IMG/VR virus record: IMGVR_UViG_3300025941_000004
DNA length: 53,854 bases
Reading direction: 5' to 3' (one strand)
DNA from: a virus
The notes beneath the pieces are model-generated. The model was not told the DNA's origin, made no database searches, and saw only the letters and a program-made list of their open reading frames with translations. Below are positions 12,501 to 39,975 of this stretch, piece by piece (positions within the stretch are counted from its first letter, which is position 1; every line of letters begins with the position of its first letter). Position numbers and translations under genes: made by a program.

Positions 12501-14770
12501 CCGCGCAGCAGCTGCCCGTTCGCATCGACCTGGCCGGCATCCTCGATCTGGGTGATGACGAACGGCTGGTCGGTGTGCGGCGCGGAGTTCTTCAACGACT
12601 CCGACCTGGACGTGTTGATCGCGTCGACCACCTTGTTCACGCCTGCGACACCTGCGGTGAAGTCCGCAGCCCGGTCGTCGGCGTACTTGGTGAACGCAGC
12701 CTTCGCGGTCTCCCGCTCAAGCTTCCCCATCTGCGCCTTCGCACGCTTCTCCGTCGGCGTCATCGACGCCAACGCCTCATCGGAGAGCACCTCGCCACCG
12801 GTCTGGAAGTAGTGAGCGATCTTCACCTGACCGTCCAGCTTCTCGTCCGCCGTCGGGGAGTGGGCGTTGATGCCCAGACCCATCCCGACACCACCGGCAG
12901 CCCCGTAGAGCCCCGAGTTCACCATGTCCTGCATGCTGCCCACGCCGTGACCGTGGGAGTACGACTCGAGCGCAGACTGGATCACCTCCTCGGTGCCCTC
13001 GCCGAACCCGTTCACCAGCGCCGTGGTGAACCGCCGCTCACCCTGGGCCATCGACTGTGCGGCCCGGTAGAAGTCGTCGGCCTTCAACGCACCCTGGCCG
13101 ACCTCCTTCCCGCGCAACGCGATCACCCGCGTGCTCAGACTCGAGATCGCCTCGGACGGAGCCAGCAGGGAGATCGTGCGGTACCTCTTGCCGACCACCT
13201 GCCCGACATCGTCGGTGATGTACCGGTAGCCCGACTCGATCTCCTCCTTGCCGCCGGCCTCGAGCGCAGCCTTCTGCGCCGCAGTCCTTCCACCGGCCCA
13301 CGTCGGCAGCACATCACGGGCCACCGCCCTACCCGAGACAGCCGTACCGAGAGTGCCTACGGCTCCCGGTGCGGCGCCCATCTGGCTGAGCCCCGCAGCC
13401 TCACGACCAGCCCACGACTTCGTCAACAGCCCTCTGGCGAGACCGATCTGCGCCACATCGACACCGATCTTCGCAATCCCAGCCGCACCCTGGGACGGGC
13501 TGAAGTGCCCCGCCTCGTCCTTGAAGACGTTGTCGAACCCGCCCTTGTTGTAGTCGAACTGGGAGCCACCGGTCAGCGCCAGCTCCGCCGTCTCCCCTGC
13601 GACAGTGGAACCCATCTGTGCCATGTACAGCCCGCGACCGATCGGGGACGCGAACTGCAGCGCACCGTCACCGAGCGCAGCACCGACATCGGCCACCTTC
13701 ACCCACGCCGGCGTCGTCGACTTCCCGGACTTGTCGGTCCGGTAGAACGCCGACTCGCCATCACCCACATCACCCTGGGACCAGTCGTACAGCCCCTGCT
13801 CGGTGTTCTGCAGCGGGGAGATCAACCGGCCCGCGAAACCACCCCACTGCTGGACACCGGTCGAGATCCCGGCACCGGAGCCGTACTGGTCCGTGGACAG
13901 CGCCGTGATCTCGTACGCCCTCGCAGCCTGCTCCGTCAGACTGTCCTTGTTCAGGAACGCGCCGACGCCACCGACCAGCGCACCGATGCCGGCACCCACC
14001 GGGGCACCCACCGCAGCACCCACACCGAAGAACGTCGAGCCAATCGCCGCACCGACACCTGTACCCAACGCCGCGCCACCCGCGGCACCACCCAGGATGA
14101 TCGCCTCATCGGTCGTTCCCTCCTCGAACTGGTGCGCCGTGTCCTTCACGTCCGCGTTGAACTCCATCGCCTTCAGCTGCTGCGGGATCTCGACGTTGTC
14201 CTTCTCCCGCTGCGCCTGAACCTCACGACCCAGGTGCTGCAACGGGTCGGAGGCCGAGAACGCGTGCGCCTTCTGGTCCTTGCTCAACGTCCACGTGGAC
14301 ATCGCAAGGTTCGCGGTGTTCTCGTCGAACCCGCCGTCCTTCTTGTCGTACATGTTGGCGACCTTGTCGCCGTTGACGTAGACATCCCCGTACTTGAACT
14401 GCGTCCCATCGGTACCTGTGTGATCCCAGGTGACGATTCCCGTCGCATGCTCCTGCTCGAAGTACGTGTTCGCCGTCCCCTCCTCCAACGCCTTGTTCCA
14501 CTTGGACATGTAGTCACTCACGAACTGGTTGTCATACCCGTTGTTCGTGCCGTCGAAGTTCGCACCCGTGTACCAGGACTGCGCTGCACCCGTGTACCCG
14601 ATCTCCGGGTCCGTCACCCACGCACCCAGCTTGGACGAGTCGTACATCGGGACGCCGGCGGCCACACCACCACCGGCCCGCGCAGCCTGCTGCATCCCCT
14701 CGGGGGCAGCAGGGTTCTGAGACTGACCCAGCCACGGCTGCAACGCACTCGAGTCGTACTTGCCCACCAC
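575..14770 (-). CDS. Giant virion-operon protein (4,731 aa) with RNA-polymerase-like two-barrel motifs, an N-terminal glycine-zipper segment and C-terminal hydrophobic segments
   Basis: Uninterrupted 14,196-nt ORF in the track. GTG start at 14770 (or 14767) follows GAGGAG. G/C-rich third positions throughout. It sits between the membrane/collagen genes and the portal gene in one co-directional operon. Confidence 0.85.
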   Translation of the reverse strand: MVGKYDSSALQPWLGQSQNPAAPEGMQQAARAGGGVAAGVPMYDSSKLGAWVTDPEIGYTGAAQSWYTGANFDGTNNGYDNQFVSDYMSKWNKALEEGTANTYFEQEHATGIVTWDHTGTDGTQFKYGDVYVNGDKVANMYDKKDGGFDENTANLAMSTWTLSKDQKAHAFSASDPLQHLGREVQAQREKDNVEIPQQLKAMEFNADVKDTAHQFEEGTTDEAIILGGAAGGAALGTGVGAAIGSTFFGVGAAVGAPVGAGIGALVGGVGAFLNKDSLTEQAARAYEITALSTDQYGSGAGISTGVQQWGGFAGRLISPLQNTEQGLYDWSQGDVGDGESAFYRTDKSGKSTTPAWVKVADVGAALGDGALQFASPIGRGLYMAQMGSTVAGETAELALTGGSQFDYNKGGFDNVFKDEAGHFSPSQGAAGIAKIGVDVAQIGLARGLLTKSWAGREAAGLSQMGAAPGAVGTLGTAVSGRAVARDVLPTWAGGRTAAQKAALEAGGKEEIESGYRYITDDVGQVVGKRYRTISLLAPSEAISSLSTRVIALRGKEVGQGALKADDFYRAAQSMAQGERRFTTALVNGFGEGTEEVIQSALESYSHGHGVGSMQDMVNSGLYGAAGGVGMGLGINAHSPTADEKLDGQVKIAHYFQTGGEVLSDEALASMTPTEKRAKAQMGKLERETAKAAFTKYADDRAADFTAGVAGVNKVVDAINTSRSESLKNSAPHTDQPFVITQIEDAGQVDANGQLLRGSVPSDAVVSSGAQLMRNFGNRMRGITEQLTLLKNNEVLKQADLDKKPADEGLQNDLAKIQQQTKQINEMIRLGQALGAEIDDRVGRMYDPNASVAARAAETEGLNQFLRDAFNRRAGDVNGVPVTTDEERMALARAVSQVVTRDPQDQSGSYQVLVPQASLKLTVSNSDNVLEISHAILPAIRGDYDGDKIRTQNQLLLDEDMFVSARAGMHFLGAGTSVNVKAPKYEKWVVQYIQEALTSTEPALVNAATGAMTSVTEAIRNRYEAIIGDEILDPVFAKFFAAVRTGDGDARSVLMDGLLEVADGPINTFARGNLSNEWLWMDQLVRAQFQAFQEDYASYRAMLGPTPGTVKKGRPVKRVSEARERRAARSATTGQTIGNWLAGDLMFRKFQKLHYTSLSASVQSSANPTQRAELYALASEYELLSAMATQSELDRVHGVDEITARVIAQLKALADNATDLDPALSQTQAMAVVANVAVLDYDIDSDGNVTTTGREITLAQMLLKQELRRDRVAKDAIFEISPELQAKHARLRAMTKPDGQGVKGSGLNAQRAFVEVFGAFQLFTLIGDAAGLMGPHISVEQYVRFYTAKDEGERKSEDYKLKNEAAYLGRESAANMPYSVAEVAAGDVSPYRSVIDSIISVGHNRITLDKKIATGNDYNAHHLNGEFSDAHYRASEAFKNSHKDVREALFKFSELSGRRVDELTLDMVQRMLDQNPTFAEKVMALIPDAAANAVFERRGDDLYIANWVYKMFTITNADEAEMHYWRNVMLAQWESLGMHARTEKDADGHQGRRYNKLERRMFKIMYDLSPQMQQDGGLLMTKFMHELQNAKNLEQFLRWVNTTPGIRGNQAPIVGWYDDSAAFDADKANGGWSTGMKGVTQREAIASLEVGAQYLKKDLVEEQNIQRSDNQVYLAIERVLKSDAGAPNVTATTEDRRLYDAFVASLKNSREMNVGLGPQAMMYQVIGAVRGFYPKAHTKGENPDNVDPAGAFDAQRDAYDYVTNYERFKASMTAVNLDAISGNMSQLAKDGVVTMDDDGRQVEWEMPVDSEGNPTAESVAKALALFSNPDTRPMARSVLFPQVMERGPEGRLTTQMLVGKDLKSLLEGDHYKKMFAHDNSIDNDSAMRYCAMLEATARNHKGHFSVQRIVNDIVIAETSGANHTLSTSEIERAAQRAFRTVAKIVQDAAAIASVPDGTGDATLKQVMSEVHAARRIQRTAGLLGFGARPGEDVKEAAARFAYTDLALDQLVAQRRGEMNDEITQIEAKLVPGLDIHEVEKIERETLGARADLEKFEARVELLRSDDPAGQAVDMFSFHSDPLTETDRQREIIQYIMSAPDKFRRKSQSTIQIMMKLSGQLEDKSRSGQVDLSASEWNHLSRATITVFLDDIVSMGSGGISVSPYPDATRPDNTRYYDTSYAYLADTLLDPTKPLLLAGRDMHRWAGLQGDIPPSPTELKKTIELNLYPDFRYGPWTGDIPRASIEANQRLDSAAAKPVIGMTGNAPKRQAAKSAATRRTFRVPGAELLSKVTLQASDLNRSLFDDVEVTHPGDRAVARPLAQLNNRFAARVMLRHYQPGTYLDATPIDLLASDLNLGHVFHTNDNAVASGYKEIHLDRLKVALEASGVDPSDVAGIDIEFFHPDMQPVETQEESDKGRTWYNNLFFEGTSFKRDSDRAESLNATLWFTEGSINPVMQAWGLDASKLGRSAIEVIETMTHAERKAIENDWATDLSHVLRMKTQEMLTKQLGLGDPEKGSKGMLEPEFYNAVYKDMKLQHLVVGKAQGTGDRLVWTAEQVIAWQQANPGVALPIDDAKLYMPSDTVLNSMLGEQGTQGATRVFDDVLSADLSQVPAYRGVSTKMLENFKHGLNGESKPLPETRIANRARQQTLQTRAYLDEKTRNAYEAKIRYLAEKREEIWDDRANYNGQTGEGGWNPRTNLGRALQTADLMLRAENISMDWTAGGLPFFGSRKNKDMELSKMLLHELEAALEVKGSRSGWIFREDQASDANAGLISGVTLSTSSGAKRIAPGDLVVVELDSFRGNAAKMRERLDYIADQGATIVLGATDGEADMRVEATQFMESIDYIRMAGSGHVYQPAITTPRFQNQRALISSLTATRGVSPRSHLAIFNVQGLNVEEGSLWVDFKNPRLHAIAETLNLVPTNYLAGFNVPVDEMTDDRIHKTQITRVRNQVLGFKNDPEGRQMLRDMAHGPETEQGKKLTPAERAHLDTEFDFYFDRMIDRLELHAGSVLPQAGDDFGTGDMIPLVGPGDTVLLYRHGHEAPDWDKVMTQKRVTRPAKHEPANMAVFSSTRNPNATSHTGTVVEFNPRSNYGLSVRLEIDLQVLGDKKVLEWNGQKYELTARPDRIQFPTYQGKEHGFLTNWDIDGVGSLDDAMSKESTDGMIVDHQSAFKFLGIDFTDDVATFLGVDATTAVDFLKLIAAQAPRIQVTAADEILNSERITEALRSQLDGFALTNAETVDPSWVDNMADPASVEAKIATSMIVYLMTPGARVGDVLKSGGFNDRTSSIDHKSVEMPILFTQVFDNSGLDSDLRNEINERINSQFYNPNQDGTGYSMSKSWRFESRHADPRKNQVGVLQFAEAHSAGDNPVINGMSFDEATRSNVSQHSAAIAYQATGALTAHSYEVAKAQLFSSTTIEPHARDTEDGGLWRMLTGIPFEDRRAGSFWKAASPAEAERIDLARDAIIQDRVEIKQLDENGWTATQRTEYNAAAVSVMQTLGLDPLQVKLVDYWVRQTLGMPHGTDANGDDVGKVSGSAAIEAVKDIAWNVNHNYLPVVGAEVPLLHVHDLQAIFRANQHRSPQWQPKAGLEDNNIKAGTWDEWVKTSLGGAFTSDHLFDPLYLLALDGYMHTYQSATRDLLDLPVSMDVLVTQNLMDETTNRLFVSVSDEQQLIATDPVTLDLQRASLDNLIGGQRVSGRLVAKAAPVSEVAKRRDARRKWRKENGIPLPLDVSMKDFLKNGGTFTDRATTVNGLYRALINLRVGTALLNPQLYVSMGPEQFVRGVLDRTANLLTMQSTAVSVGRKGQVKGLAGRQARLTERLADTTLGAGLSRLGLEAAYRPDQLVKLNKLYTVMGQRNDFKSMVYKELFFLRPHEPGVGKAERWLENYAKLGTKVQDPTWGTRANTLARRYMEAALSHIMATPTMNQLSVDRLIAEMATSPQFLKQNFPTAHEAGMNSVAQLRSLKPTPLSLTLRGIYEPLSESPNMGLAFLGNVVLKMPMLFSGYAVNVATTILGLQGLSDMTAMFLEGRKKGPNSLFGRVSAKIRGVQFDPEMDATFDMSSVLEGVDLSRSFIRGSLTHTGLFAFGMMAGGLGLSGEDDETKKRRRLAALQGAPVIYDPRRIENDFRNADAMFVDWLPPGIASMFRVTTDEAPGGARSMVQLNWVLKQFISPIMGMEKFYETGDFRNVGWGFEDALGAFPLINANTWDDAFQTAAELAQMADDQSKLGGAHNMPIAAGFLTNAVGVYEKMLFENAFINQIYVARDEYDRDPFVLPLRNASRELQGDAEGNPRPQNLSMESYIDPETGQIKQGYQTRSDSEATLHAFTENRFSLAVMSSLFAKMTGGTPDYFRTQMPEKLREIEKQPMTKQRAEAIVRSLSQAAGGTEALSLDELIYKIKGDAMASKNWNVYNNADKIARANYHPEMLEPLSVLDAQGHEVLTKAGARGIYQGLAKGSVKIGDDSLQGIFIPRDMRVQIQKEWTEELIQEGVDMGLDQTKATSRMKRIWYGPLSNPDALGIGDILWHKDISYDKSVVYKQLNTTYVMGPDGRPWATGFKRAGVLGAFGLKPYQEAYVSEQSATGNDSLLNTTDLVNGMNTGLRALQLVDKSSYIPTDVEIGKSIEKAIADAANKTYTPQQPYSNSNGNGYSRFPYHRYSGYGRRSYGGGGYSSSGYSQYNKMYALPGARAPFGDDIPFINTSSPFIRREDIHRERVWSERGRLKQWQ
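710..850 (-). other. Tyr/Gly/Ser/Arg-rich low-complexity C-terminal tail of the giant protein
   Basis: Translation NGNGYSRFPYHRYSGYGRRSYGGGGYSSSGYSQYNKMY. The plus strand shows gtagcc/gtagct repeats. Confidence 0.8.
2468..2812 (-). other. C-terminal hydrophobic (possible membrane-inserting) segments of the giant protein
   Basis: GLFAFGMMAGGLGLSG followed by EDDETKKRRR (2468-2515). MGLAFLGNVVLKMPMLFSGYAVNVATTILGLQGL (about 2700-2812). Confidence 0.55.
11891..12088 (-). other. Beta-prime-like barrel segment with DYDGD motif (codons 11933-11947, residues 942-946)
   Basis: VVTRDPQDQSGSYQVLVPQ...NVLEISHAILPAIRGDYDGDKI parallels bacterial beta-prime LNRAPTLHRLGIQAF...[21 protein letters not shown]. 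Reverse complement of 11933-11947 checked as GAC TAC GAC GGC GAC. Confidence 0.6.
13151..13192 (-). other. Beta-subunit-like basic loop GKRYRTISLLAPSE (residues 527-540)
   Basis: Resembles beta-barrel [17 protein letters not shown] (G, basic pair, I-S, then P and E at the same offsets). Short match only. Confidence 0.35.
13952..14101 (-). other. Glycine-zipper / Ala-Gly-rich hydrophobic segment of the giant protein (residues about 224-273)
   Basis: ILGGAAGGAALGTGVGAAIGSTFFGVGAAVGAPVGAGIGALVGGVGAF. Confidence 0.7.
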
Positions 14771-14811: not shown

Positions 14812-15291
14812 TCAATCAGCCACACAGACACTGACCGTCACATCCGTGTCGACCGGCGAACGCTGATGCAACGCAACAACCGCCACATGGAAGCCGGTCG
14901 GACAGATCGGACCAGCCGGACCCGGTATCCCCTGCTCACCGGTTCTACCGGTGCGACCGGGCCGTCCCGGCTTCCCCCTGAAGCCAGGACGACCCTGACG
15001 ACCCGCTGGTCCAGGCGCCCCCCGCACGCCTGGGCTACCGTTGACGCCGTCCACACCGTCGCGACCCGGATTCCCCGTACGGCCAACGCGACCCTGCGGA
15101 CCCTGGGGACCCTGCCGGCCACGCTCCCCCTGCTGGCCGGCAGGCCCTTGCGGTCCCGGTACTGAGACGACCGTAGTCACCTTCTGTGACGCAGGTTCAG
15201 AGGCTTCAGTCCCGACCATCGCAGCACCGAACGCCAAGACTGCCAGGGCACCGGCTGCGATGTAGCCGAACGGGGAACGCGTGAGGATCAC
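14812..15291 (-). CDS. Membrane-anchored collagen-like protein (159 aa)
   Basis: N-terminal hydrophobic helix FGYIAAGALAVLAFGAAMV, then about 30 G-X-Y triplets (GPQGPAGQQGERGRQGPQGPQGRVGRTGNPGRDG...). GTGA start/stop overlap with the upstream gene. Confidence 0.8.
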   Translation of the reverse strand: MILTRSPFGYIAAGALAVLAFGAAMVGTEASEPASQKVTTVVSVPGPQGPAGQQGERGRQGPQGPQGRVGRTGNPGRDGVDGVNGSPGVRGAPGPAGRQGRPGFRGKPGRPGRTGRTGEQGIPGPAGPICPTGFHVAVVALHQRSPVDTDVTVSVCVAD

Positions 15292-15557: not shown

Positions 15558-15740
15558 GCGCTCAGCCTCCCACCTACACGGCTCTCACGGCTCACCCGCA
15601 GGAGCCCAGGCCGTCACAAGGCTTCCAGCCCTCTCCTGGTGTCGCACAAGCGTCGAAGCTCGAAGGCGATTCCGTCGAAACCCCAAACTCCGTGCATCTG
15701 GAGCTGCATCTGGAACACGGGAAAAGTTTGCGGGAGGTTC

Positions 15741-15900
15741 CAATATAAACAACATAAACAAAAGAAACAATCTATTCCCCCTTATTATATATATATATGG
15801 GTATTAGGATCCATTTGGAATGTAATAAGTGAAACATTTGTTTCGTTTGGTTGATTTCTTTTTGGTTGGTTATCACAGTGGTAACTGATGTCTCATGTGA
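15741..15900. promoter_or_regulatory. AT-rich island with phased A-tracts and a (TA)6 run. Candidate divergent promoter region, DNA-unwinding element or genome end.
   Basis: My hand count gives 48 G+C in 160 nt (about 30%) in an otherwise GC-rich genome. ATAAACAA-like units at 15744, 15754 and 15764 (10-bp phase). TATATATATATAT at 15786-15798. Confidence 0.5.
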
Positions 15901-15913
15901 CTTAGGAGTCAAC

Positions 15914-16147
15914 ATGGATTTTGGAGATGCGCTCAAGGCTAGCGTTATCGCTGGCATGGATCCCATGAATGGGATGATGCGCTCGCTGATGGCGTCGACT
16001 ATTCGTGAGAAGTCGGTTGTTGTCGATGGTCAGGTCATGGACAACATGGATCGGTTGCGTAAGGCAATCGAGGAGATGAAGTCTGCTGGTTCGGACCAGA
16101 AGATCATCGACGCTTATCAGCGTATGCTGGACAACTACACGAAGTAG
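15914..16147 (+). CDS. Hypothetical Met-rich small protein (77 aa), low-GC gene
   Basis: AGGAG at 15904-15908, ATG at 15914. Translation MDFGDALKASVIAGMDPMNGMMRSLMAS... Confidence 0.6.
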   Translation: MDFGDALKASVIAGMDPMNGMMRSLMASTIREKSVVVDGQVMDNMDRLRKAIEEMKSAGSDQKIIDAYQRMLDNYTK

Positions 16148-16161
16148 TTGGGATCGAGTGT

Positions 16162-16198
16162 GGCTTCCAGCTTATGCTGGGAGTCATGCTCTTTTTTT
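16162..16198 (+). terminator. Candidate terminator after the 77-aa gene
   Basis: 10-bp stem (two G-U pairs) GGCTTCCAGC-TTAT-GCTGGGAGTC. A T7 run at 16192-16198 lies 6 nt downstream. Confidence 0.4.
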
Positions 16199-16408: not shown

Positions 16409-16492
16409 TATCAGCATTGTCACAGCGGTAGCTGTGTCTCGAGCTGTGCTCGGTTCACTGGGCAGCGAGGGCACCGAGCTGATTGGGCCGGC

Positions 16493-16715
16493 GGTGTGTA
16501 GACACCTGGTGTAGTCACCCTGTGTACAACTGCATCTGTGCAGGTCAGGCGGTGCATGTGGTGTGTAGACACCTTCTCGTATCTAACCTCATCCCTAGGT
16601 GTATGTTGTACACCTTCTGGTGAGATTGGTATGTGAAGGCTGTCTACATGCACCATGTGCCGTCTGACCTGCACGTTTGCAGTTGTACACAGGGTGTCTA
16701 CATGGGGTGTCTACA
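16493..16715. promoter_or_regulatory. Motif array A: 9-mer TGTAGACAC / GTGTCTACA, 4 perfect and 2 one-mismatch copies, sorted by orientation
   Basis: TGTAGACAC at 16497 and 16564, each inside the 15-mer GGTGTGTAGACACCT. TGTAGTCAC at 16510. CTGTCTACA at 16640. GTGTCTACA at 16694 and 16707 (GGGTGTCTACAT x2, 13-bp period). The array ends 57 nt before the RHH gene ATG. Confidence 0.75.
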
Positions 16716-16771
16716 TCCCTGTTTGCCGGCGATTCATTGCAGCATTCGTACACATCGTGTACGTTGTGTCC

Positions 16772-17128
16772 ATGACTATGAACACAACGATCACTGCTCG
16801 TGTTGCCGCCGACGTGCGCTCGTCTCTCGAGACAGCTGCACGTCTGAAGGGCTGGACTCTGTCCAAGTACGTGGACCACGTACTCACCACACATGTGGTG
16901 GACCTTGGGATGTTGAGTCCGGCCAGCATTGGTCCGGTCCGTCACAACGCTTTGCCTGACTCGAAGTATGTGCGAGCTCAGGTACTCGCTGATCTTCAGC
17001 GAGAGTATGAGGCTTTCATCGAGCGAGGCGTTGATCCTCGTCAAGCGAGGGCCAACACCGAAGCGATGGTAGCCATGTATGCATCGAGAGGCGTGTCTAT
17101 CTCATTCGATGATCTAGGTGTGGAGTAA
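16772..17128 (+). CDS. Ribbon-helix-helix (Arc/MetJ/CopG-type) DNA-binding protein (118 aa)
   Basis: N-terminus MTMNTTITARVAADVRSSLETAARLKGWTLSKYVDHVL fits the strand-helix-helix pattern. The track start at 16655 was rejected because that extension translates the repeat array. Confidence 0.55.
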   Translation: MTMNTTITARVAADVRSSLETAARLKGWTLSKYVDHVLTTHVVDLGMLSPASIGPVRHNALPDSKYVRAQVLADLQREYEAFIERGVDPRQARANTEAMVAMYASRGVSISFDDLGVE

Positions 17129-17136
17129 CACCACTT

Positions 17137-17262
17137 GCACACGTGTGTGCTGTCGCTATGCGTAGCGCCGGCTCATGCGTGAGCCGTGGTTATGCGTAAC
17201 CACAGGATACGTATTTCCTTTTTGGTTTGGGGGTAAAGGGATTGAGATATCTAACGATATCT
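17137..17262. promoter_or_regulatory. Intergenic repeat cluster: palindrome CACACGTGTG, three ATGCGT(A/G) copies at an exact 17-bp period, and inverted repeat AGATATC-TAAC-GATATCT
   Basis: CACACGTGTG at 17137-17146. ATGCGTA at 17158, ATGCGTG at 17175, ATGCGTA at 17192. Inverted repeat at 17245-17262. Confidence 0.6.
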
Positions 17263-17675: not shown

Positions 17676-17905
17676 CCAAGCAGGCGGCACGGATCCATGC
17701 CACGTTCGTGGCTGGGTTCGTGCTGCTCTGCTGCCTGATTGTTGGCGTACTGCTGGTGATGTCGGGAAAGGACAGCAACAGCCAGTCGCCGGCGATCCAC
17801 CCTGGATCCTCGTTGCGTCAGCCGTACGGCGGATGCGATGAGGCGTGGCGGTACCCGCATTCCCGTGGGTATCGAGACTGTCAAGCGTTGGGACTGGTTC
17901 CATGA
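17672..17905 (+). CDS. Small membrane protein with Cys-containing C-terminal domain (77 aa)
   Basis: GTGA overlap with the upstream stop. TMD FVAGFVLLCCLIVGVLLVM. Confidence 0.55.
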   Translation: MTKQAARIHATFVAGFVLLCCLIVGVLLVMSGKDSNSQSPAIHPGSSLRQPYGGCDEAWRYPHSRGYRDCQALGLVP

Positions 17906-18153
17906 CGGAGCAACTGCGTGACCAGCTGGGGTCCGAGGCCCTGGCTGTGGCTGAACTCCTGCGGCGTGGCATCAGCATCGGTGACGATGCGATGCCACAG
18001 TCGCACGGATGCACCCTGTGCATCTGGCATCTGCGTAGTGATGGCCACGATCTCGACGGTGGTTCGGCGAACTCCTTGCTGAGCAACCTCGAGTCTGGCT
18101 ACTACGGTCAGGACCCGCAGGGTCTGACGCTTCATCCCCTCGGGGATCAGTAG
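17902..18153 (+). CDS. Hypothetical protein (83 aa)
   Basis: ATGA overlap with the upstream gene. In-frame part of track ORF 17845..18153. Confidence 0.5.
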   Translation: MTEQLRDQLGSEALAVAELLRRGISIGDDAMPQSHGCTLCIWHLRSDGHDLDGGSANSLLSNLESGYYGQDPQGLTLHPLGDQ

Positions 18154-18320: not shown

Positions 18321-18566
18321 ATGGCGTACCACCCGTTCACTGACTACGACCAGTCTCCGTTCACGGAGGCTGAGCTCGTACGTCATGCTCGGTTGCTCAA
18401 CCACATCACTGCCAGCCATGACGCTTTCGCGCATGCTGCAGTGGTGAGGCTGGAGCATGCGAACGGCCGAGCATCCTCGGCCCAGGTTCGCAGCGCCGAG
18501 CGCCATGCTCGGGCCCACAAGGATCGTCTCCTTGTGGACCTGGGCTTCGGTCGGTACGGGGACTAG
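18321..18566 (+). CDS. Hypothetical protein (81 aa)
   Basis: GGAGG 6 nt upstream of the ATG. Track ORF. Confidence 0.6.
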   Translation: MAYHPFTDYDQSPFTEAELVRHARLLNHITASHDAFAHAAVVRLEHANGRASSAQVRSAERHARAHKDRLLVDLGFGRYGD

Positions 18567-18606
18567 CGTCCTCTGGCAGTCACCGTGAGGTGGCTGCCCC
18601 ACGATC

Positions 18607-18650
18607 AGCAGGCCGAGCCCAAGGGGAAGGGCTCGGCCTGCTTGTTCTGT
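18607..18650 (+). terminator. 14-bp perfect stem-loop followed by TTGTTCTGT
   Basis: AGCAGGCCGAGCCC-AAGGGGAA-GGGCTCGGCCTGCT. Confidence 0.55.
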
Positions 18651-18693
18651 CGTACCTCTGCGGCAGGATGACGTTGCAACGGAAGGAGTGGCT

Positions 18694-18975
18694 ATGCCAC
18701 CGAAGAAGAAGGCGGACGAGACCGCCGCGGACAAGCCCAAGCGCACGCGCGTGGTGCTGTCCCCGGCGGAGAAGATCGCCAAGCTGGAGGCTGACCTCGA
18801 GGCTGCGCGTACGTCGCAGCACGAGGCGGAGCAGAAGCAGATCGACAAGCTCCTCGAGCGTCGCTCGAAGCTGACCGATCGCATCGCGGAGCTGGACGTG
18901 AAGGTTTCCGACCTGAACGAGCAGCTTCAGCTCCTCGGCTACGACGAGCCGACGCCCGAGACCGAAGAGGTCTGA
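18694..18975 (+). CDS. Basic N-terminus / coiled-coil protein (93 aa)
   Basis: GGAAGGAG 5 nt upstream of ATG 18694 (the track uses GTG 18688). Translation MPPKKKADETAADKPKRTR..., then a helical repeat. Confidence 0.6.
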   Translation: MPPKKKADETAADKPKRTRVVLSPAEKIAKLEADLEAARTSQHEAEQKQIDKLLERRSKLTDRIAELDVKVSDLNEQLQLLGYDEPTPETEEV

Positions 18976-29527: not shown

Positions 29528-29550
29528 CCACCGGGATGAAAGGAGCACGC

Positions 29551-30942
29551 ATGCTAGAGCCCAAGACCCGGAAGGAGCTGGCTACCTATGCCTTCAGTCT
29601 CGCTTCCGGTCATCAGCTGGTGCGCCACCGTGGCGTCACCTATATCCCTGCTGACTATGAGACCCGTGACGTGTCCGTTCCACCGGACATCGACCGTACC
29701 ATGTGGTTGCCGCTGAGCCTGGAACAGGTGGAGCGGATGGCTGCCGACGAGTTCGACATCTTGTTCGCCAACTCCTCGGAGCTGGTGAACTACGACTACA
29801 TGGTGGCGCAGAACGCCAGTCACAACGACAAGCCGGTGACGTCGTTGCTGGTCAGGACCCAAGCAGGGTTGAGAGAGCTGGATCACCGTGGTGATCTGGT
29901 GGCACCGAGTGGGGACTTCCGTCCCAACACGTTGGTGCCGATGCTGAACGAGGACAAGGCCGACAAGGACTACGTCTTCGAGGTTGTGTCGGGTTGGCTC
30001 AACTCCGACGAGGAGGCCGAGTCGTTCCTGAAGCACCTGGCGTCCAGCCTGTCACCAGGCTGGTCGGCAGTGAAGTACATCCTGCTGATCGGTGAGGGCA
30101 GGAACGGGAAGTCTGTGGCGTTGAAGATGCTGCAGCACCTGTTCGGTGCGGAGAACGTGTCGAGTGTGACTCGGCAGATGATCTCCGAGCAGAGCCCGGT
30201 GGTCACCGAGCTCAACGGGAAACTGCTGAACATCGTCTTCGACGGTCAGGCGGTGTACCTGAAGGACAGTGGAACGGAGAAGTCCCTGATCGCGGGTGAG
30301 CCCGTGTCGATCAGGAAGCTGTACGAGTCCAAGTCGACGCAGGTGCAGACGAACGCCTTGTTCCTCGAGGGTCTGAACCGTGAGCCGAAGACGAGCGACA
30401 AGTCTGCTGCCCTGCAGAAGCGGTTGGTCCGGTTCCAGTTCCCGAACGTGTACCGGCTGGACCACCGGTTCGAGCGGCGGATGCTGAGCGAGCGGATGCT
30501 CGGTGCGCTGCTGTCGCTGCTGGTCGACCGCTACATCCTCGAGGATGCGGTGGCCGGCGAGCTGGCGCCGACGAGTCGTGCGCTCGAGCTGCAGCTTGAG
30601 CAGATGCTGGTGAACTCCACGGGTCTGCAGTACTTGAAGTACGTGGAGGACACCGAGCCGAACGGGGTGAACTCCCTGTTCGGTGAGGAGTTCAGTGTGG
30701 TCGTGACGGGGTTCAAGTCGTGGCGGCTGCACACCGAGAACGATCTCGGTGGTTGGTCCGAGCCCGACGTGTTCGCTCAGTTCCAGCCGTTGCTGGAGAC
30801 CGAGCGGAAGTCGGTGAGGTCCAACGAGAAGGTGAGCAAGGTCAGGTTCGTGGTCGGCTTGAAGGAGGAGGCGGCTGCGTTCATGGAGACACAGAGAGCG
30901 GAGGATCCACATGACGACATCACTGCCTTGGTGGAGGACTGA
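29551..30942 (+). CDS. D5/P4-type superfamily 3 helicase (463 aa)
   Basis: Walker A LIGEGRNGKS, Walker B-like LLNIVFDG. AGGAG upstream of ATG 29551. Confidence 0.7.
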   Translation: MLEPKTRKELATYAFSLASGHQLVRHRGVTYIPADYETRDVSVPPDIDRTMWLPLSLEQVERMAADEFDILFANSSELVNYDYMVAQNASHNDKPVTSLLVRTQAGLRELDHRGDLVAPSGDFRPNTLVPMLNEDKADKDYVFEVVSGWLNSDEEAESFLKHLASSLSPGWSAVKYILLIGEGRNGKSVALKMLQHLFGAENVSSVTRQMISEQSPVVTELNGKLLNIVFDGQAVYLKDSGTEKSLIAGEPVSIRKLYESKSTQVQTNALFLEGLNREPKTSDKSAALQKRLVRFQFPNVYRLDHRFERRMLSERMLGALLSLLVDRYILEDAVAGELAPTSRALELQLEQMLVNSTGLQYLKYVEDTEPNGVNSLFGEEFSVVVTGFKSWRLHTENDLGGWSEPDVFAQFQPLLETERKSVRSNEKVSKVRFVVGLKEEAAAFMETQRAEDPHDDITALVED

Positions 30943-31759
30943 CGTCTACGACACCGAGGAACGGAACGTGGCGTTCATGAACTACGCCGGACCGAAGGGC
31001 ACCGCCCTGGTAAGGGTGTGGCCTGATGGTCGGACCGATACAGGCTGGGGACTTACGTCCACGTCCGGTCCGGGGTTCATGGAGAAGTACATGCGTGGCG
31101 AGTTCGACGAGCGTCGCATCCTGTACGGCTACCGCCGCGGCAGGTGGGCGTACGCCTACGTGATGCGGTCGGTGCTGCTGGTGTGCATCGACATCGACGG
31201 GAAGAACGGTGGGCTCGACCATGCCAAGAGGCTGGGCGTGCTGCCGCCGACGATGGCGGAGACGTCGAAGTCGGGAGACGGGTACCACCTGTTCTACGTC
31301 GTCGACGACAAGTGGGATGCGGTCAAGGGCTACGGCCTGCTGAACGATCGCATCGGTGTCGAGCAGGGCGTGGACTTCCGGGCGACCGGATGCGTCTACC
31401 ACTACGACACGCAGAGGTGGAACGGGAGGCAACCGGCCAAGCTGCCGGACCACCTGTTCCAGATCTTGAACGCACGCGATCAGAAGATCGCTGCGACCGC
31501 AGCCAGGATCACGAAGGTCCTGGCGAACGAGGATGAGATGGAGGTATTGATGATGCACGACGAGATCATCGACGACCTGAAGAAGCCGATGCCGCAGGGG
31601 AAGCGCAACCAGACCCTGTTCGCCATCGGCAGCCAGATGCAGCAGGCGCAGATCCCTGGCTGGGAGGAGCTGCTGCAGGACAGGGCGCTCGATGTCGGCC
31701 TGCCGGCGGACGAGGTCGCCAAGCTGGTGGCCAACATCAACAAGTACGGCCTGCCGTGA
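30911..31759 (+). CDS. Archaeo-eukaryotic-type primase-polymerase (PrimPol) with PriCT-like C-terminus (282 aa)
   Basis: CIDIDGKNGG (DxD), SGDGYHLFY, GVDFRATGCVYHY. C-terminal GKRNQTLFAIGSQM. Confidence 0.75.
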   Translation: MTTSLPWWRTDVYDTEERNVAFMNYAGPKGTALVRVWPDGRTDTGWGLTSTSGPGFMEKYMRGEFDERRILYGYRRGRWAYAYVMRSVLLVCIDIDGKNGGLDHAKRLGVLPPTMAETSKSGDGYHLFYVVDDKWDAVKGYGLLNDRIGVEQGVDFRATGCVYHYDTQRWNGRQPAKLPDHLFQILNARDQKIAATAARITKVLANEDEMEVLMMHDEIIDDLKKPMPQGKRNQTLFAIGSQMQQAQIPGWEELLQDRALDVGLPADEVAKLVANINKYGLP

Positions 31760-33768: not shown

Positions 33769-33935
33769 GGCAGCTCCCTGGCTGCATGGTGTAGCAGCGC
33801 GGTGGCGATTCGGACGGCGTCTCTGGGCGGGAAGTCGTAGACGTCGCCCTCGCCGTACACGTCTGTCATCTCGAGACGGACCATTCCGTCGACACGGCTG
33901 ACGGTGAAGCCGTCACGCGGTTCATCCTCGTTCAC
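33765..33935 (-). CDS. 56-aa protein coupled to the terminase stop
   Basis: GTGA overlap with the terminase stop and ATGA overlap with the next gene. Translation VNEDEPRDGFTVSRVDGMVRLEMTDVYGEGDVYDF... Confidence 0.45.
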   Translation of the reverse strand: MNEDEPRDGFTVSRVDGMVRLEMTDVYGEGDVYDFPPRDAVRIATALLHHAARELP

Positions 33936-35392
33936 TTGGCCCACACCTTCGACCAGTCCTCGATGTAGTCGACGGACGTCTCGGATCCTGGTTGCTCAAA
34001 AAATTTTCCGCCGAAGAAGTCCAGCTCCTTGGTGGCCTGCACCGCGTAGCGGTAGGCATCCATCGTGTGGCTGAAGCGGTCGTGCAGCGGCTTCTCTGTC
34101 CACATCTGCAGCTTGTGGTTGAACTCGTACTTGTAGTTCTCGAAGCACTCGAGCAGCCACTGGCAGTTGCCCTCGTGGACGATCAGGTTGTACATCTGCA
34201 GCCGTGCCTGCTGGATATCGGTGATGATGTCGTAGTCCCCCTGGCGTGAGCCGGGGATCTTCCACACCTTGCCGGACTTGGCGAGGACGGAGACGTTGGG
34301 GAACTTGGTGCGCATCATGTCCGCGGGCGTGGTGTTCACGGCCTTCTCGTGGTGCTCTCCGTCCCACGGTAGGATCATCTGCGCCACCTGGTTGAACCAG
34401 GGCTTCTCGCGGAGGACGTCGACGTACTCCGGCAGTGCCTTGCCGTGGCCCTCGCCGCAGTCGTATATGAACATCTTCGAGTTGATCCACTGCCAGGCGA
34501 TCCACGCTGTGGCGTCGGAGTGCATCCCGGATGCGCCGATGTCGAAGACCACGTACACCGGATGCGCGGTGTTGAGGTTGAACGTGTGGATCCGCTGGTC
34601 GTTCATCATCGCCATGTACGCCTCGCCGTACACGGCGGCAGCGTCCATCTCCTCGAACGAGCAGTAGTACTCCTGCTCGAACATCCGGTCGTTGCCGAAC
34701 CGGCGGTGGTAGGTCTCGCGGATCTGCTCGAGCTGAGCCTGCGTCAGCACCGGCTCGAGCTTCTCGGCCACCATCATGGCGTTGAGATCGTCGATGGTGC
34801 GGGTGATGACCTTGAAGTCGGGGTTGCCCTCCATCGACTGCATCAGCTGCCACAGCGGGTTCTTCCGCTTGCCTCGTGGAGTCGAGGCGAACATCAGCTT
34901 CTTGTCCTCGGCCCGGTTCTCGATGATCGGGATGAGCCGGGGGATCGGGTCCTCGCGTGTGAACAGGGCGAGCTCGGTGAAGGCGTAGTCCTGGAAGGAC
35001 GTGCCGACACCGTTCTTGTCGCGGCCCGACTGGAAGTAGCCCTGCAGCTTGAGCCGGCTCTTGTTGGAGAACCGGCCCTCCATGACCGTGCCCTTCCAGT
35101 CGACGAGCTCGGTGGGCACGTTGTCCTGCAGGGCCTGGACGTAGAAGCCGGAGGCCGGGTCGAAGTACGTCTTGTCCCACAGAATGTCGCGGATCATCGG
35201 GTTGTCGAGGCTGACGTAGACGCCCGTGGTCTTGGGTGTGCGGAGCCGGCGCTCGCACATCTCCATGCTCATGCCCACGTCCTTGCCCGACTGGCGCGGG
35301 TACACCACGCCCGAGATGCGGTACTTGCGCCACATCTCGTGGGCCTCACGCTGGTACGGGCGAGGCCGGTAGTGGACAGGGAACGTGGGCAT
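33932..35392 (-). CDS. terL: Terminase large subunit (486 aa)
   Basis: ATPase P-loop-like YPRQSGKD. Nuclease motifs VVFDIGASGMHSDATAW and HDRFSHTMDAYRY. Confidence 0.85.
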   Translation of the reverse strand: MPTFPVHYRPRPYQREAHEMWRKYRISGVVYPRQSGKDVGMSMEMCERRLRTPKTTGVYVSLDNPMIRDILWDKTYFDPASGFYVQALQDNVPTELVDWKGTVMEGRFSNKSRLKLQGYFQSGRDKNGVGTSFQDYAFTELALFTREDPIPRLIPIIENRAEDKKLMFASTPRGKRKNPLWQLMQSMEGNPDFKVITRTIDDLNAMMVAEKLEPVLTQAQLEQIRETYHRRFGNDRMFEQEYYCSFEEMDAAAVYGEAYMAMMNDQRIHTFNLNTAHPVYVVFDIGASGMHSDATAWIAWQWINSKMFIYDCGEGHGKALPEYVDVLREKPWFNQVAQMILPWDGEHHEKAVNTTPADMMRTKFPNVSVLAKSGKVWKIPGSRQGDYDIITDIQQARLQMYNLIVHEGNCQWLLECFENYKYEFNHKLQMWTEKPLHDRFSHTMDAYRYAVQATKELDFFGGKFFEQPGSETSVDYIEDWSKVWAK

Positions 35393-37392: not shown

Positions 37393-37997
37393 TACTCCTC
37401 CCCCTTGAACTCCATCAGGGTCTGCGTCAGCATCTCCTGGTCGGCCTCGGTGAACTCGAACTTGATCTGCTCGAGCCACGCCACCAGTCCCTGGTCGGAC
37501 AGGAACATCTTGTGGATCTCGGAGATGACGGCGACGTCGATGGCGGCGTAGCCGCTGGTGCAGTCCCACTCCATCTCCCACTCGAGGATGGCGAGCTGCC
37601 AGTTCATCAGCAGGTTCTTGTAGTGGTAGGAGTTCTCGGCTGCGTCCTCGACGGCGTCGTTCTTGGACAGACAGTCGGGGTCGGAGGCGATCTCGAGCTT
37701 GGCGATGTCGAGCATCTGCTGCAGCCGCTTGTAGTACAGGTCGCGGAAGTCGTTCATGTCGGCGTACGCCAGGCCCATGTAGGTGGCGATCATCCGGTTC
37801 GCCCACTGCGGGGTGACGTTCCTCTTCGACTCGGCTGCCGCCGGCTTCAGCACTTCGCGCCAGGCTTCGAGGATCGTGTGGTACGTGGTGTCCTCGTCGC
37901 CCTCGGGCGCGATGTTCAGCGCAGCCAGGTCCACCTTGTCCCGGTCGGAGTACTCGATGGTCTCGATGACCTCGCCGGGGACGACTTCCTCGCTCAT
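37392..37997 (-). CDS. Hypothetical acidic protein (201 aa)
   Basis: ATGA overlap with the upstream gene. In-frame part of track ORF 37392..38411. Confidence 0.6.
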   Translation of the reverse strand: MSEEVVPGEVIETIEYSDRDKVDLAALNIAPEGDEDTTYHTILEAWREVLKPAAAESKRNVTPQWANRMIATYMGLAYADMNDFRDLYYKRLQQMLDIAKLEIASDPDCLSKNDAVEDAAENSYHYKNLLMNWQLAILEWEMEWDCTSGYAAIDVAVISEIHKMFLSDQGLVAWLEQIKFEFTEADQEMLTQTLMEFKGEE

Positions 37998-38749
37998 TCG
38001 GGCACCTTTCCGGTCAGCATCAGCTGACGGTATTCCGCTTCGATCGCACGTACGACGGAGCGGATGTCGTAGCACAGGACGTTCTCGACGTAGACGAGCT
38101 TGGCCTCGGCGGGCACGAGCTCGGCTCCGCCGTAGTAGTCGCGGACCTCGAACAGGTCGAAGCCCTCGAGGCCGTTGTAGGTGTGGACCTTGAACGGGAA
38201 GCGCGGGTCCTTGAAGACGCCGACCTGGTAGGACGGCAGCGTGATCTTGACCTCCGCTGTCCGTGGCGGGCCGTCGCCCGCTACCTCGAAGGTCTCGACG
38301 AACTCGCCCGACTTGGTCTGGACCTGCTTGGTGCCGGTCTCCACGTAGGTCAGCACGCGGCGCCCGCGCGGCTTGGGGTACGCGGGCTTCAGGATCTCCT
38401 CCTGGTACCACTCGCGCCCGGTCTCCGGGTCGATCCGGATGGGCACGTCCTCAGGCTGGCTGTTCTGCCGTTGCCCGGCCATCTCGCCTGGGTCGGCGTG
38501 CCGGACCTCGATGTCCTGTGTCCGTACGGGATCGGGCTCCGGTGCCTCGAACCCGAAGAAGGTGGGCGGCGGCGGCTCTTCCTGGTCGAGCTGTTGCGGC
38601 TCGGGTGGGGCGTCGAGGTCGACTCCGTCGTTGAGCTTGAGCCAGGCAGAGCGCAGGCCCTCGGTGTTGTACTCGCGGTAGTGCTTGTCGAAGTTGACGC
38701 CTGCGGCCTTCAGAGCCTGGTAGTACCGGGCCTTCTCGTTCTGGCTCAT
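37994..38749 (-). CDS. Hypothetical protein (251 aa), first gene of the packaging unit
   Basis: ATG 38749 after TAGGAA. Upstream codons of track ORF 37994..38947 only translate the repeat array (GVYTGVYTGVYT). Confidence 0.6.
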   Translation of the reverse strand: MSQNEKARYYQALKAAGVNFDKHYREYNTEGLRSAWLKLNDGVDLDAPPEPQQLDQEEPPPPTFFGFEAPEPDPVRTQDIEVRHADPGEMAGQRQNSQPEDVPIRIDPETGREWYQEEILKPAYPKPRGRRVLTYVETGTKQVQTKSGEFVETFEVAGDGPPRTAEVKITLPSYQVGVFKDPRFPFKVHTYNGLEGFDLFEVRDYYGGAELVPAEAKLVYVENVLCYDIRSVVRAIEAEYRQLMLTGKVPE

Positions 38750-38820
38750 GTCGTTCCTAGGTAGGTCGGGCGGACGATGTGACGAACAGTAGCAGCGGCG
38801 GCTGGGCGGCGGCGAGAGCG

Positions 38821-39055
38821 TGTAGACACCCGTGTAGACACCCGTGTAGACACCCTTGTAGACACCTCGAATCGCTGCGTTTCCCCAGGTCAGCGCGATG
38901 TAGACACTGTAGACACCAGAAAAGCGGATTCTTTCTGAGTGTGACACTCATAAACTTTGGTCTTTTTTGGTGTCTACGGTGTCTACATGCCTCTGACCTG
39001 CGGTTATGTGTAGACACGAGGGGGTGTCTACAGGGTGTCTACACGGGTGTCTACA
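38821..39055. promoter_or_regulatory. Motif array B: 12 copies of TGTAGACAC / GTGTCTACA between divergent units U2 and U3
   Basis: TGTAGACAC at 38821, 38833, 38845, 38857 (12-bp period), at 38899 and 38908 (9-bp period) and at 39009. GTGTCTAC(G/A) at 38970 and 38979. GTGTCTACA at 39024, 39035 and 39047. Confidence 0.85.
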
Positions 39056-39086
39056 TTTCGGCACCGCCCAGCGGTACGGTGAGGCC

Positions 39087-39200
39087 ATGAGCGAAGCTCC
39101 CGCCGAACAGCATCCCGACTACGACCCTGAGCTCGATGACCCGGACGACGACGCTTCGGAGTCCGAGGGCGAGATCTTCACGGAGCCGGCCAGTGAGTGA
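39087..39200 (+). CDS. Small acidic protein (37 aa)
   Basis: GGTGAGG upstream of ATG 39087. Translation MSEAPAEQHPDYDPELDDPDDDASESEGEIFTEPASE. Confidence 0.45.
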   Translation: MSEAPAEQHPDYDPELDDPDDDASESEGEIFTEPASE

Positions 39201-39420
39201 GCCCAGCGTCGGTCGCATCGTCCACTACGTGTCGTACGGCTCCGCGGGTGGCAAGTTCACCTCCGAGTGCCGGGCCGCAGTGGTCACCGAGATCAACCCG
39301 AACGACATCGGGATCTGTGTTCTCAACCCGACGGGTGTGTTCTTCGACCGGCAGATCCGTCAGTCTGAGGACGAGCACACCGGTGGCACCTGGCACTGGC
39401 CGGAGAGGGTGGAGGAATGA
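39193..39420 (+). CDS. Conserved small phage protein (75 aa)
   Basis: GTG 39193. VGRIVHYVSYGS...CRAAVVTEI...GTWHWPERV pattern is common in actinobacteriophages (from memory). Confidence 0.55.
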   Translation: MSEPSVGRIVHYVSYGSAGGKFTSECRAAVVTEINPNDIGICVLNPTGVFFDRQIRQSEDEHTGGTWHWPERVEE

Positions 39421-39818
39421 GCAACCCGATCCCGCCGTACACGATCTCCACGCCGTACGGCAAGCGTGGGTCGTGGGCCGCCGGCTACCACACCGGAGAC
39501 GACTACTCGACCAAGGGCAAGACCGGTGTCCCGGTTCGTGCCAGCAAGGCGGGCTGGGTCCACTCCACGTTCAACGCGTGGGGCTCGAGCTACGGGATCC
39601 ACGTGGTGCTCATCAACAAGTCGACGGGCATCAGGATCGGCTACTGCCACCTGAGCTCGATCAAGGTGAAGGCCGGGCAGCGGATCAAGAAGGGCCAGAT
39701 CGTCGGGTACTCCGGGAACACTGGGAACTCGACTGGGCCGCACCTGCACTATGAGGAGCGGAAGTCACCGTACGGCTACTGGGACCACCGGAAGCCCGTC
39801 TTCAACAGAACGGACTGA
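39417..39818 (+). CDS. M23-family metallopeptidase endolysin (133 aa)
   Basis: GYHTGDDYS (HxxxD) and GNSTGPHLHYEE (HxH). ATGA overlap. Membrane proteins follow. Confidence 0.8.
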   Translation: MSNPIPPYTISTPYGKRGSWAAGYHTGDDYSTKGKTGVPVRASKAGWVHSTFNAWGSSYGIHVVLINKSTGIRIGYCHLSSIKVKAGQRIKKGQIVGYSGNTGNSTGPHLHYEERKSPYGYWDHRKPVFNRTD

Positions 39819-39819
39819 C

Positions 39820-39975
39820 ATGGACGTCTTGTACTTCATCCTGTTCCTGGTCGCTGCGATCTTCTTCGCCATCGCAGCGGTCGGCGTCAGCCATCCGCGG
39901 CTGAACCTGATCGCAGCCGGACTGTTCTGCTGGGTGCTGGTGCTGGTGATCCACGCCGGGAAGGCGCTCAACTGA
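39820..39975 (+). CDS. Holin-like protein with two TMDs (51 aa)
   Basis: MDVLYFILFLVAAIFFAIAAVGV...LIAAGLFCWVLVLVIHAG. Directly downstream of the endolysin. Confidence 0.6.
   Translation: MDVLYFILFLVAAIFFAIAAVGVSHPRLNLIAAGLFCWVLVLVIHAGKALN

Follow-up and report, generated by a model that had tools for sequence, protein, structure and literature searches.

The stretch of DNA analysed here, called the window, was the 53,854-nucleotide IMG/VR virus record IMGVR_UViG_3300025941_000004, and the subject of this analysis is a pair of repeat arrays, arrays A and B, that it carries. The window is the complete, circularly permuted 54-kb genome of a Microbacterium podovirus of the EK/Burro type. Its large terminase (33932-35392, minus strand) was 71% identical to those of the Microbacterium phages Araxxi, Burro, and DoTi. 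In the Cluster EK/Burro podoviruses, the early and replication genes are read leftward and the structural genes rightward, and one gene is longer than 13 kb (PMC7302621). The corresponding gene of the window was located at 575-14770 and encoded 4731 residues. Repeat arrays in these phages go unmentioned in the paper that described them (PMC7302621). Array B (38821-39055) filled the 337-bp gap between a block of minus-strand genes and a block of plus-strand genes. To its left, the gp43-like gene (37994-38749, minus strand) headed the leftward gene block that has the large terminase at its end, and to its right a mini-cassette of four genes (39087-39975) was encoded on the opposite, plus strand. 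Array A (16497-16715) lay between a gp26-like gene (about 15911-16147, plus strand) and the first early gene. It was not in a divergent gap because a strong terminator of the same-strand gp26-like gene, with a 16-bp stem followed by seven T residues (16156-16191, plus strand), preceded it.

The exact 9-mer TGTAGACAC occurred 15 times in the window, compared with 0.33 copies expected and a maximum of two in dinucleotide-preserving shuffles. All of these copies were confined to the two arrays, and copies with one mismatch were at the background level elsewhere in the window. Alignment of 18 copies showed that the true repeat unit was 10 bases long, TGTAGACACC, and that its tenth base was C in 16 of them. 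Array B contained 11 exact copies and one copy matching at eight of nine positions, which gave 12 copies per 235 bp, and array A contained four exact and two one-mismatch copies. On the plus strand of array B, the exact copies started at 38821, 38833, 38845, and 38857 with an exact 12-bp period, at 38899 and 38908 as a back-to-back pair, and at 39009 as the lone plus-strand copy on the right side. A pattern search located the minus-strand copies at 38979, 39024, 39035, and 39047, together with the 8/9 copy at 38970. The left half therefore had all six copies on the plus strand and the right half had five of six on the minus strand; the chance that at least 11 of 12 copies fit such a mirror pattern was about 0.006 in a simple calculation. 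These repeats had been described before in a sequence-only reading of the window. Every copy coordinate given there for array B was correct, the inverted repeat claimed at 39009/39024 was present as GTGTAGACAC-6 nt-GTGTCTACA, and the claim that the exact 9-mer was restricted to two loci agreed with both the exact and the one-mismatch scans. The claimed sorting by orientation held for 11 of the 12 copies and failed for the copy at 39009. The excess over expectation, the confinement to two loci, and the sorting by orientation bore out the view that this was a non-random array of sites of the protein-binding type, and array B is far from chance.

As a whole, module B (38801-39072) was a 272-bp imperfect palindrome centred near 38943, with the nested inverted repeats I1, I2, and I6. 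As a single strand it formed one long hairpin with a dG of -97.7 kcal/mol (z = -14). From the outside inward, each half consisted of tandem iterons with an 11-12-bp period, a CAGGTCAG box, and a back-to-back doublet, similar to an object and its mirror image. The outer left iterons were four tandem copies of TGTAGACACC (38821-38868, plus strand) in 12-bp units, of which two read TGTAGACACCCG, the third ended in ...CCT, and the fourth in ...CTC. They were followed by the left copy of the second conserved box, CAGGTCAG (38886-38893, plus strand), which was identified by motif alignment, and by the inner left doublet of two adjoining iterons (38899-38916, plus strand), which was identified by pattern search. 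The right half contained the inner doublet (38970-38987, minus strand, with the 8/9 copy first), the right copy of the box, CTGACCTG (38993-39000, minus strand, motif alignment), a local palindrome of two iterons (39009-39032, formed by 39009-39017 on the plus strand and 39024-39032 on the minus strand, 6 nt apart), and the three outer iterons (39024-39055, minus strand) with 11- and 12-bp spacing. The inner doublets at 38899/38908 (plus) and 38970/38979 (minus) faced each other across an AT-rich centre of 53 nt (38917-38969), which is the proposed site of DNA melting. The lowest GC content over 50 nt in this centre was 0.36, compared with 0.637 for the genome, which placed it in the bottom 0.27% of such segments. 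Only five regions of the window had a GC content of 0.40 or lower, and these were the centre of array B and four regions around array A (15.7-17.3 kb). In all lineages, no other part of the module was as well conserved as the inner doublet. The CAGGTCAG box recurred at the equivalent position in relatives, mostly as CAGGTCAGAGG followed by a small GC hairpin, and a pair equivalent to 39009/39024 was also found in them. Module A (16497-16715), the second locus, shared the plan of array B, but its core was degenerate, with single inner copies and a 67-nt centre. Its palindrome had the arms 16497-16571 and 16641-16715, which were 81% complementary, its CAGGTCAG boxes were at 16541 (plus) and 16664 (minus), and one of its copies was the variant TGTAGTCACC.

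About 20 related lineages had the same module plan, and in most of them the genes on its two sides shared one strand. Array B was carried by IMG/VR contigs that were 81-98% identical to the window (L024, L001, L014, L007+L027, L021, and L003), and contig L033, which was 82% identical, kept arrays at both loci, with its array A on the same contig as L052. The full module with the TGTAGACAC motif was also present in distant relatives with unalignable flanks, at the A position in L016 and L013 and at the B position in L046, L073, L074, L076, L077, and L078. Canonical versions of module A were found in L033, L016, L013, L108, and L109. The variant motif TGTAGTCAC was arranged in the same plan in L042, L045/L053, L058, L067, L070, L072, and L079, and the variant CTAGTCACC in L047. 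In most of the variant-motif lineages, the module began directly after the stop codon of the gp41-like gene and lay upstream of the gp43-like gene, between genes of the same strand, as in L045/L053, L047, and L042. In L021, a same-strand open reading frame (ORF) ended within the last iteron. Since the mirror module persisted irrespective of the direction of the flanking genes, the dyad symmetry belongs to the element and not to the genes. The sequence-only reading had claimed that the copies point outward to the genes that they precede. This did not stand, as the mirror module also sits between same-strand genes in relatives, and one half of array A in the window faces a terminator instead of a gene.

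The plan was also kept where the motif was unrelated. The arrays of Araxxi, Burro, Akoni, and TinyTimothy were found in a gap of about 900 bp at the A position and only there. In Araxxi and Burro the motif was AGGTAACG (core GGTAAC), with 11/11 and 9/9 copies, respectively, falling in the gap when 50 kb were scanned per genome, and in Akoni it was GCGTAACC (core GTAACC). In TinyTimothy, CGGTTCAC was the top repeated word of the gap by word count. Araxxi, Burro, and Akoni each had at least two copies that faced each other across AT-rich DNA in the centre, and this facing-doublet core was the rule common to the classes GGTAAC, GTAACC, TGTAGTCAC, CTAGTCACC, and TGTAGACAC. Contig L048 had the gp43-like gene and no array. 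The two loci of one genome carried the same motif variant in the window, in the L033/L052 contig, and in the TGTAGTCAC genome 3300048834_000075 (L109 at A and L095 at B), and therefore one lineage-specific factor reads both. Different motifs were found in phages of the same host strain, and the reading factor is therefore phage-encoded. A hairpin-like box, (C)CCATG(C/G)GAGACATGG(G), was observed amid the iterons of EK/Burro phages in up to four copies per region (Araxxi 18500-18790, Burro 17890-18150, and Akoni 16470-16800). It held the place of the CAGGTCAG box and was common to phages with differing iterons. Many metagenomic contigs of this phage group, namely L003, L013, L014, L016, L021, and L024, started or ended within a few hundred bases of an array, which probably reflects assembly breakage at a two-copy repeat and may bias which genome parts are recovered.

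The reading that we favour, with evenly balanced confidence, is that arrays A and B are iteron-type replication origins for a self-loading superfamily 3 (SF3) helicase of the phage, similar to the Rep proteins of the Staphylococcus aureus pathogenicity islands (SaPIs). The two arrays may also be one origin and a second cis-acting replication site. The proposed initiator was the 468-residue SF3 helicase (29536-30942, plus strand; Pfam DUF5906), whose gene overlapped that of a Prim-Pol primase (30911-31759, plus strand; Pfam PF09250). The helicase homologues of Araxxi and Akoni were likewise DUF5906 proteins with a Prim-Pol gene, and more than 800 helicase homologues were found, as were many contigs of about 53 kb. 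Its only sequence relative in the PDB was PriRep5 of SaPI5 (7OLA/7OM0, E = 1.3e-7), which is a primase-helicase (PMC9371898). A model of the helicase was built with AlphaFold2 from a 31-sequence alignment (mean pLDDT 78), and the top Foldseek match to it was again PriRep5 (7OLA, E = 6.7e-15, TM about 0.6), with 444 aligned columns that span almost the whole protein, followed by the D5/E5 primase-helicases of African swine fever virus and poxviruses. PriRep5 was thus the closest relative in both sequence and fold. The C-terminus of the model contained a helix at 386-401, a second helix at 409-416, and a β-hairpin at 420-442, and residues of about 386-454 were predicted to be winged-helix-like. 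We infer that the iterons are bound by the helicase and that replication starts at the arrays. In the proposed mechanism, the helicase would bind the 10-bp iterons through its C-terminal winged-helix-like domain, and the facing copies on either side of the AT-rich centre would allow two helicase rings to assemble head to head. The 53-nt centre would then melt, and the neighbouring Prim-Pol would prime synthesis.

The closest known systems are the SaPI replication origins read by self-loading Rep/PriRep helicases (Ubeda 2007 and 2012; Qiao et al. 2022, PMC9371898). SaPI Rep proteins are both initiator and helicase, and their C-terminal winged-helix domain recognises short iterons (PMC9371898). 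The SaPI origin has 6-12 iterons, divided equally between the two flanks of a central AT-rich region, and its conserved feature is a minimum of two iterons per flank in opposite directions (PMC9371898). Array B was alike in all of these structural points, with 12 iterons split six and six around its AT-rich centre and with facing inner doublets, and so were the modules of all lineages and motif classes whose layout was read, TinyTimothy excepted. The iteron sequence was specific to the element, as in SaPIs, and the phage has the corresponding proteins, namely a DUF5906 SF3 helicase matching PriRep5, in which the C-terminal winged helix is predicted, and a Prim-Pol primase. The iterons of SaPIs differ in being 5-6 bp long, compared with 10 bp in the window, and their origins lie directly 3' of the helicase gene. 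The window also differed in having two loci per genome and, in its lineage, an added CAGGTCAG(AGG) box that carries a small GC hairpin and separates the inner iterons from the outer ones. Moreover, a SaPI is a satellite island, whereas the window is a lytic actinobacterial podovirus. Read in this way, the element is of a known kind. It has not been reported from these phages before, and it departs from the known examples in its placement, its copy number, and its additional conserved box. A second parallel is provided by phage P4, in which ori and crr are both bound by the alpha primase-helicase and both act in cis. The P4 iteron is the asymmetric 8-bp TGTTCACC, which is present in several copies in both orientations at two separate loci and is read by the C-terminal winged-helix domain of the SF3 primase-helicase. 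Asymmetric iterons at two loci are thus common to P4 and the window. The crr of P4 consists of direct 120-bp repeats, in contrast to the palindrome in the window, and some relatives of the window hold only locus A.

A third parallel came from pattern scans, which also returned four unrelated groups of low- and mid-GC phages in which (T)GTAG(A/T)CAC(C) doublets faced each other across a TATATA-rich centre (L002 5143-5400, L056 8359-8720, L065 2220-2490, and L054 8037-8250). All four arrays were directly 3' of genes for VapE-like/DUF5906 helicases, which is the canonical pri-rep-ori position; L056 had a separate Prim-Pol gene, and the L054 protein contained primase C-terminal domains. The word, the facing doublets, the centre, and the helicase families were shared with the window, whereas the position next to the helicase gene was not, and these origins are themselves predicted. 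The recurrence of GTAG(A/T)CAC beside VapE/DUF5906 helicases in distant phyla suggests an old and portable pairing of origin and initiator. A direct homology of the low-GC helicases beside the same motif to the helicase of the window was considered and dropped, since the likeness was limited to the P-loop. The 9-mer as a marker of one function was also rejected, because elsewhere it was found in coding repeats or beside an integrase-like gene.

Several results weigh against the arrays being origins. With its end at 30942, the helicase gene is 8 kb and 13 kb away from the arrays, which start at 38821 and 16497, unlike those of SaPIs and of the low-GC phages, and the origin is not directly downstream of the helicase gene. 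No similarity beyond the P-loop was detected between the window helicase and the helicases of the low-GC phages, C-termini included. In an unrelated contig family (L034/L020), a TGTAGACA array adjoined ORFs that, by their translations, resembled a terminase and not a helicase. GC skew gave no consistent origin signal, and it was uninformative because the sign change at array A in the window was not reproduced in Araxxi, Burro, Akoni, and TinyTimothy. A regulatory role would also suit the position of both arrays, each of which shortly precedes a gene start that has a plausible -10 hexamer.

The co-variation of the motif and the helicase belongs to the same weighing. The P-loop core of the helicase was 62-74% identical to that of the window in all lineages. 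The last 90 or so residues were 48-49% identical in L021 and L046, which have the same motif, 35-39% in L053, L042, and L047, whose motif is one or two bases off, and 15-21% in Araxxi, Burro, Akoni, and TinyTimothy, whose motif is unrelated and whose core was 62-65% identical, a trend that is confounded with phylogenetic distance. Such a fast divergence of the C-terminus in lineages with an unrelated motif would fit the helicase as the reader. The helicase C-termini of L067 and L058, which have TGTAGTCAC, were as near to that of the window as those of the same-motif lineages, and C-terminal identity did not separate the ...ACAC genomes from the ...TCAC genomes. A single candidate specificity residue, located before a conserved KVR in the predicted hairpin, sorted 8/8 genomes, with Arg in the ...TCAC and other residues in the ...ACAC genomes, but was rejected when only 5/7 new ones followed it (L072, L073, L074, L076, and L079 fitted, and L077 and L078 did not). 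Over the 15 genomes, Arg at this position occurred in six T-type and two A-type genomes and other residues in none and seven, respectively, which is an association with motif class and not a recognition code. In an unbiased scan of residues against motif class, which covered 34 proteins of the window, no column told the classes apart in the well-sampled proteins, the helicase included; the early-region proteins and the giant protein were poorly sampled. The likely reason is that iteron position 6 varied within genomes (12+2 in L001, 2+7 in L058, 11+3 in L077, and the one TGTAGTCACC copy in array A of the window), which leaves the A/T contrast with little power.

The main rival explanation is that the arrays are operator or enhancer sites of a lineage-specific phage transcription regulator, whose cooperative binding would switch the neighbouring promoters, namely those of the early operon at array A and those of the packaging operon and the lysis mini-cassette at array B. 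We consider this possible but somewhat unlikely. It accounts for the location of both arrays directly upstream of gene starts. The start codons at 16772 and 39087 were each preceded, at a distance of 6 nt, by a TANNNT hexamer, and leaderless mRNAs would suit this geometry. A -10-like TACTGT was found about 40 nt upstream of the gp43-like start, and the hexamer TAsTGT was kept at this place across lineages (L001, L021, L046, L047, and L048), including L048, which has no array. The distance from the last iteron to the candidate -10 was 19 nt on the right and 29 nt on the left in the window and L001, and 39 nt in L021, in steps of a helical turn; however, this phasing failed in L046, where it was 74 nt. 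Two operator loci per genome would be normal for a regulator, and the first early genes, which include those of DNA-binding proteins in Araxxi and Burro, were lineage-specific, as are the motifs. There were -10-like hexamers near the arrays, but no consensus promoter of the sigma-70 type was found in array B. Among the sampled proteins, in which those of the early region were poorly represented, no regulator was conserved together with the arrays, and gp23 and gp8 of Araxxi had no homologue in the window. The 270-bp dyad symmetry persisted where only one side or neither side had a gene to control, and operators do not typically have doublets of an asymmetric motif that face each other across AT-rich DNA. 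A symmetry that does not depend on the direction of the flanking genes is expected of an origin and not of divergent promoters, and the mirror layout was also found in one-directional contexts. Such operators would resemble the p4 control region of phi29 or the heptad arrays of the ribbon-helix-helix (RHH)/omega type. The early/late control region of phi29 (p4/p6) is alike in belonging to a podovirus with oppositely transcribed early and late blocks and a central non-coding region packed with repeated sites. The window differs from it, and from the repeat operators of the RHH/omega type, in that none of the sampled proteins qualified as a cognate regulator, the dyad does not follow the direction of the genes, and the facing doublets enclose an AT-rich centre. 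The stoperators of Cluster A mycobacteriophages, which are dispersed and in one orientation to transcription, were rejected as a model since the sites in the window were in two clusters and in both orientations.

The sequence-only reading had proposed an RHH-like protein (16772-17128, plus strand) as the binder. This ORF, which lies outside the conserved system, had no match in Pfam, PHROG, or PDB and no relatives in the viral contigs searched, and no homologue of it adjoined the arrays of Araxxi, Burro, Akoni, or TinyTimothy. In L033, which keeps the arrays, array A was directly followed by a homologue of the gene that comes after the RHH-like ORF in the window, and the RHH-like ORF itself was missing. 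It was therefore rejected as the binder.

The location of array B next to the packaging genes raises the alternative that it is a pac site for headful packaging, with the small terminase binding the clusters that flank a central cleavage region. In phage P1, the pac site has hexamer clusters flanking the cut site. EK/Burro phages are circularly permuted, which implies headful packaging (PMC7302621), and in about 20 lineages array B was found directly upstream of the genes that lead up to and include the large terminase. The TGTAGACA array of L034/L020 was also just upstream of the terminase-like ORFs, which were read as such from their translations and had no match in a family search. Nevertheless, a pac role is very unlikely. 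The same motif and plan were found at array A, far from the packaging genes, and the arrays of Araxxi, Burro, Akoni, and TinyTimothy were at the A position only, while L048 had the gp43-like gene without an array. A pac site of the P1 type is a single site per genome beside the small-terminase gene, whereas the window had two loci, and family searches recognised no small terminase near array B. In addition, a near-perfect palindrome gives no direction to packaging.

The giant protein (575-14770) gives rise to a further alternative. The sequence GDYDGDK was observed at residues 942-946 of its 4731 residues (11933-11947, minus strand), with GDFDGDK in Araxxi and Burro, and the motif was also carried by Akoni and TinyTimothy. 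Motifs of the D(F/Y/N)DGD type are the catalytic signature of two-barrel RNA polymerases, and virion polymerases fused to giant proteins are known in crAss-like phages and P23-45. The giant protein may therefore carry a virion RNA polymerase, judging from this motif; no published report of such an enzyme in the giant proteins of EK/Burro phages was found. The arrays would then be its promoters or entry sites, which we regard as the least probable of the explanations and highly doubtful. Comparison of five giant proteins placed the motif at equivalent positions in all of them, within surroundings of 21-30% identity, array A was upstream of the early operon, and lineage-specific motifs resemble the pairs formed by polymerases and their promoters. 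On the other hand, the giant protein had no sequence match in Pfam or PDB, and a profile search reached only E = 2.9 to a phage β' chain. The known promoters of such enzymes are single sites before individual genes and not mirror arrays of 6-12 copies. Array B precedes late genes for packaging and lysis, and half of the copies point away from any gene.

Replication and regulation could also be combined. The arrays would then be dual-purpose hubs, at which the helicase-bound palindrome fires replication and also gates the adjacent promoters, those of the early operon at A and of packaging and lysis at B. This is unlikely, but if true, late-gene expression would be coupled to origin firing, and the second copy would have been recruited upstream of the packaging genes for that purpose. 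If the arrays are replication origins, the origins of a whole phage clade, the EK/Burro-type Microbacterium podoviruses and their many uncultured relatives, could be located from sequence alone, and the mechanism of a self-loading helicase plus iterons known from SaPIs and P4 would extend to lytic actinobacterial phages. It would also follow that an origin is separable from its helicase gene and is able to exist as two copies that evolve in concert. The five motif classes would be a clean set of natural iteron variants for studying how initiator specificity changes.

Among the neighbouring genes, the mini-cassette to the right of array B encoded, all on the plus strand, a very acidic ORF of 37 residues (39087-39200), a PHROG_2293 protein of 75 residues (39193-39420), an M23 peptidase (39417-39818), and a small membrane protein (39820-39975). 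One operon of Araxxi contains gp41, gp42, and gp43 in succession, with the lysin elsewhere, whereas in the window the mini-cassette and array B sit between the homologues of gp41 and gp43. The in-operon genes of Araxxi for lysin A and membrane proteins (genes 34-37) had no homologue in the window, and the mini-cassette takes the place of these lysin/holin genes. At the site of the mini-cassette, L073, L076, and L077 held only a small plus-strand ORF, which read as a membrane protein in L073 and L076. At other places, relatives carried genes for an M15 peptidase (L073 and L078) or an amidase (L076). Just upstream of the large terminase in the sense of transcription, L076 (15635-15850) and L079 (15894-16148) carried a small gene for an Acb2/Tad1 hairpin-domain protein (PF24729, the anti-CBASS/Thoeris sponge family), and no match to PF24729 was seen among the genes of the terminase block of the window.

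Searches with Rfam found no known RNA family anywhere in the window. On the side of array A, ATGCGT(A/G) words and CTCATGCGTGAG palindromes clustered at 17150-17200, downstream of the RHH-like ORF, and were kept in L033 (reverse complement, about 9650-9710). ATGCGTA occurred six times in the window compared with 2.2 expected, with three of the copies within 16.2-17.2 kb, and the early region may have a further regulatory site in this cluster. A very AT-rich stretch containing TATATA (15708-15928) separated the gp26-like gene from the small genes ahead of the giant gene, and a resembling 'atatatacatatatataggggg' element occurred in Araxxi, L016, and L013. A 159-residue ORF (14812-15291, minus strand) just upstream of the giant gene had a hydrophobic segment at its N-terminus, after which collagen-like G-X-Y repeats extended over about 90 residues, and this ORF was kept in L033 at 56% identity.

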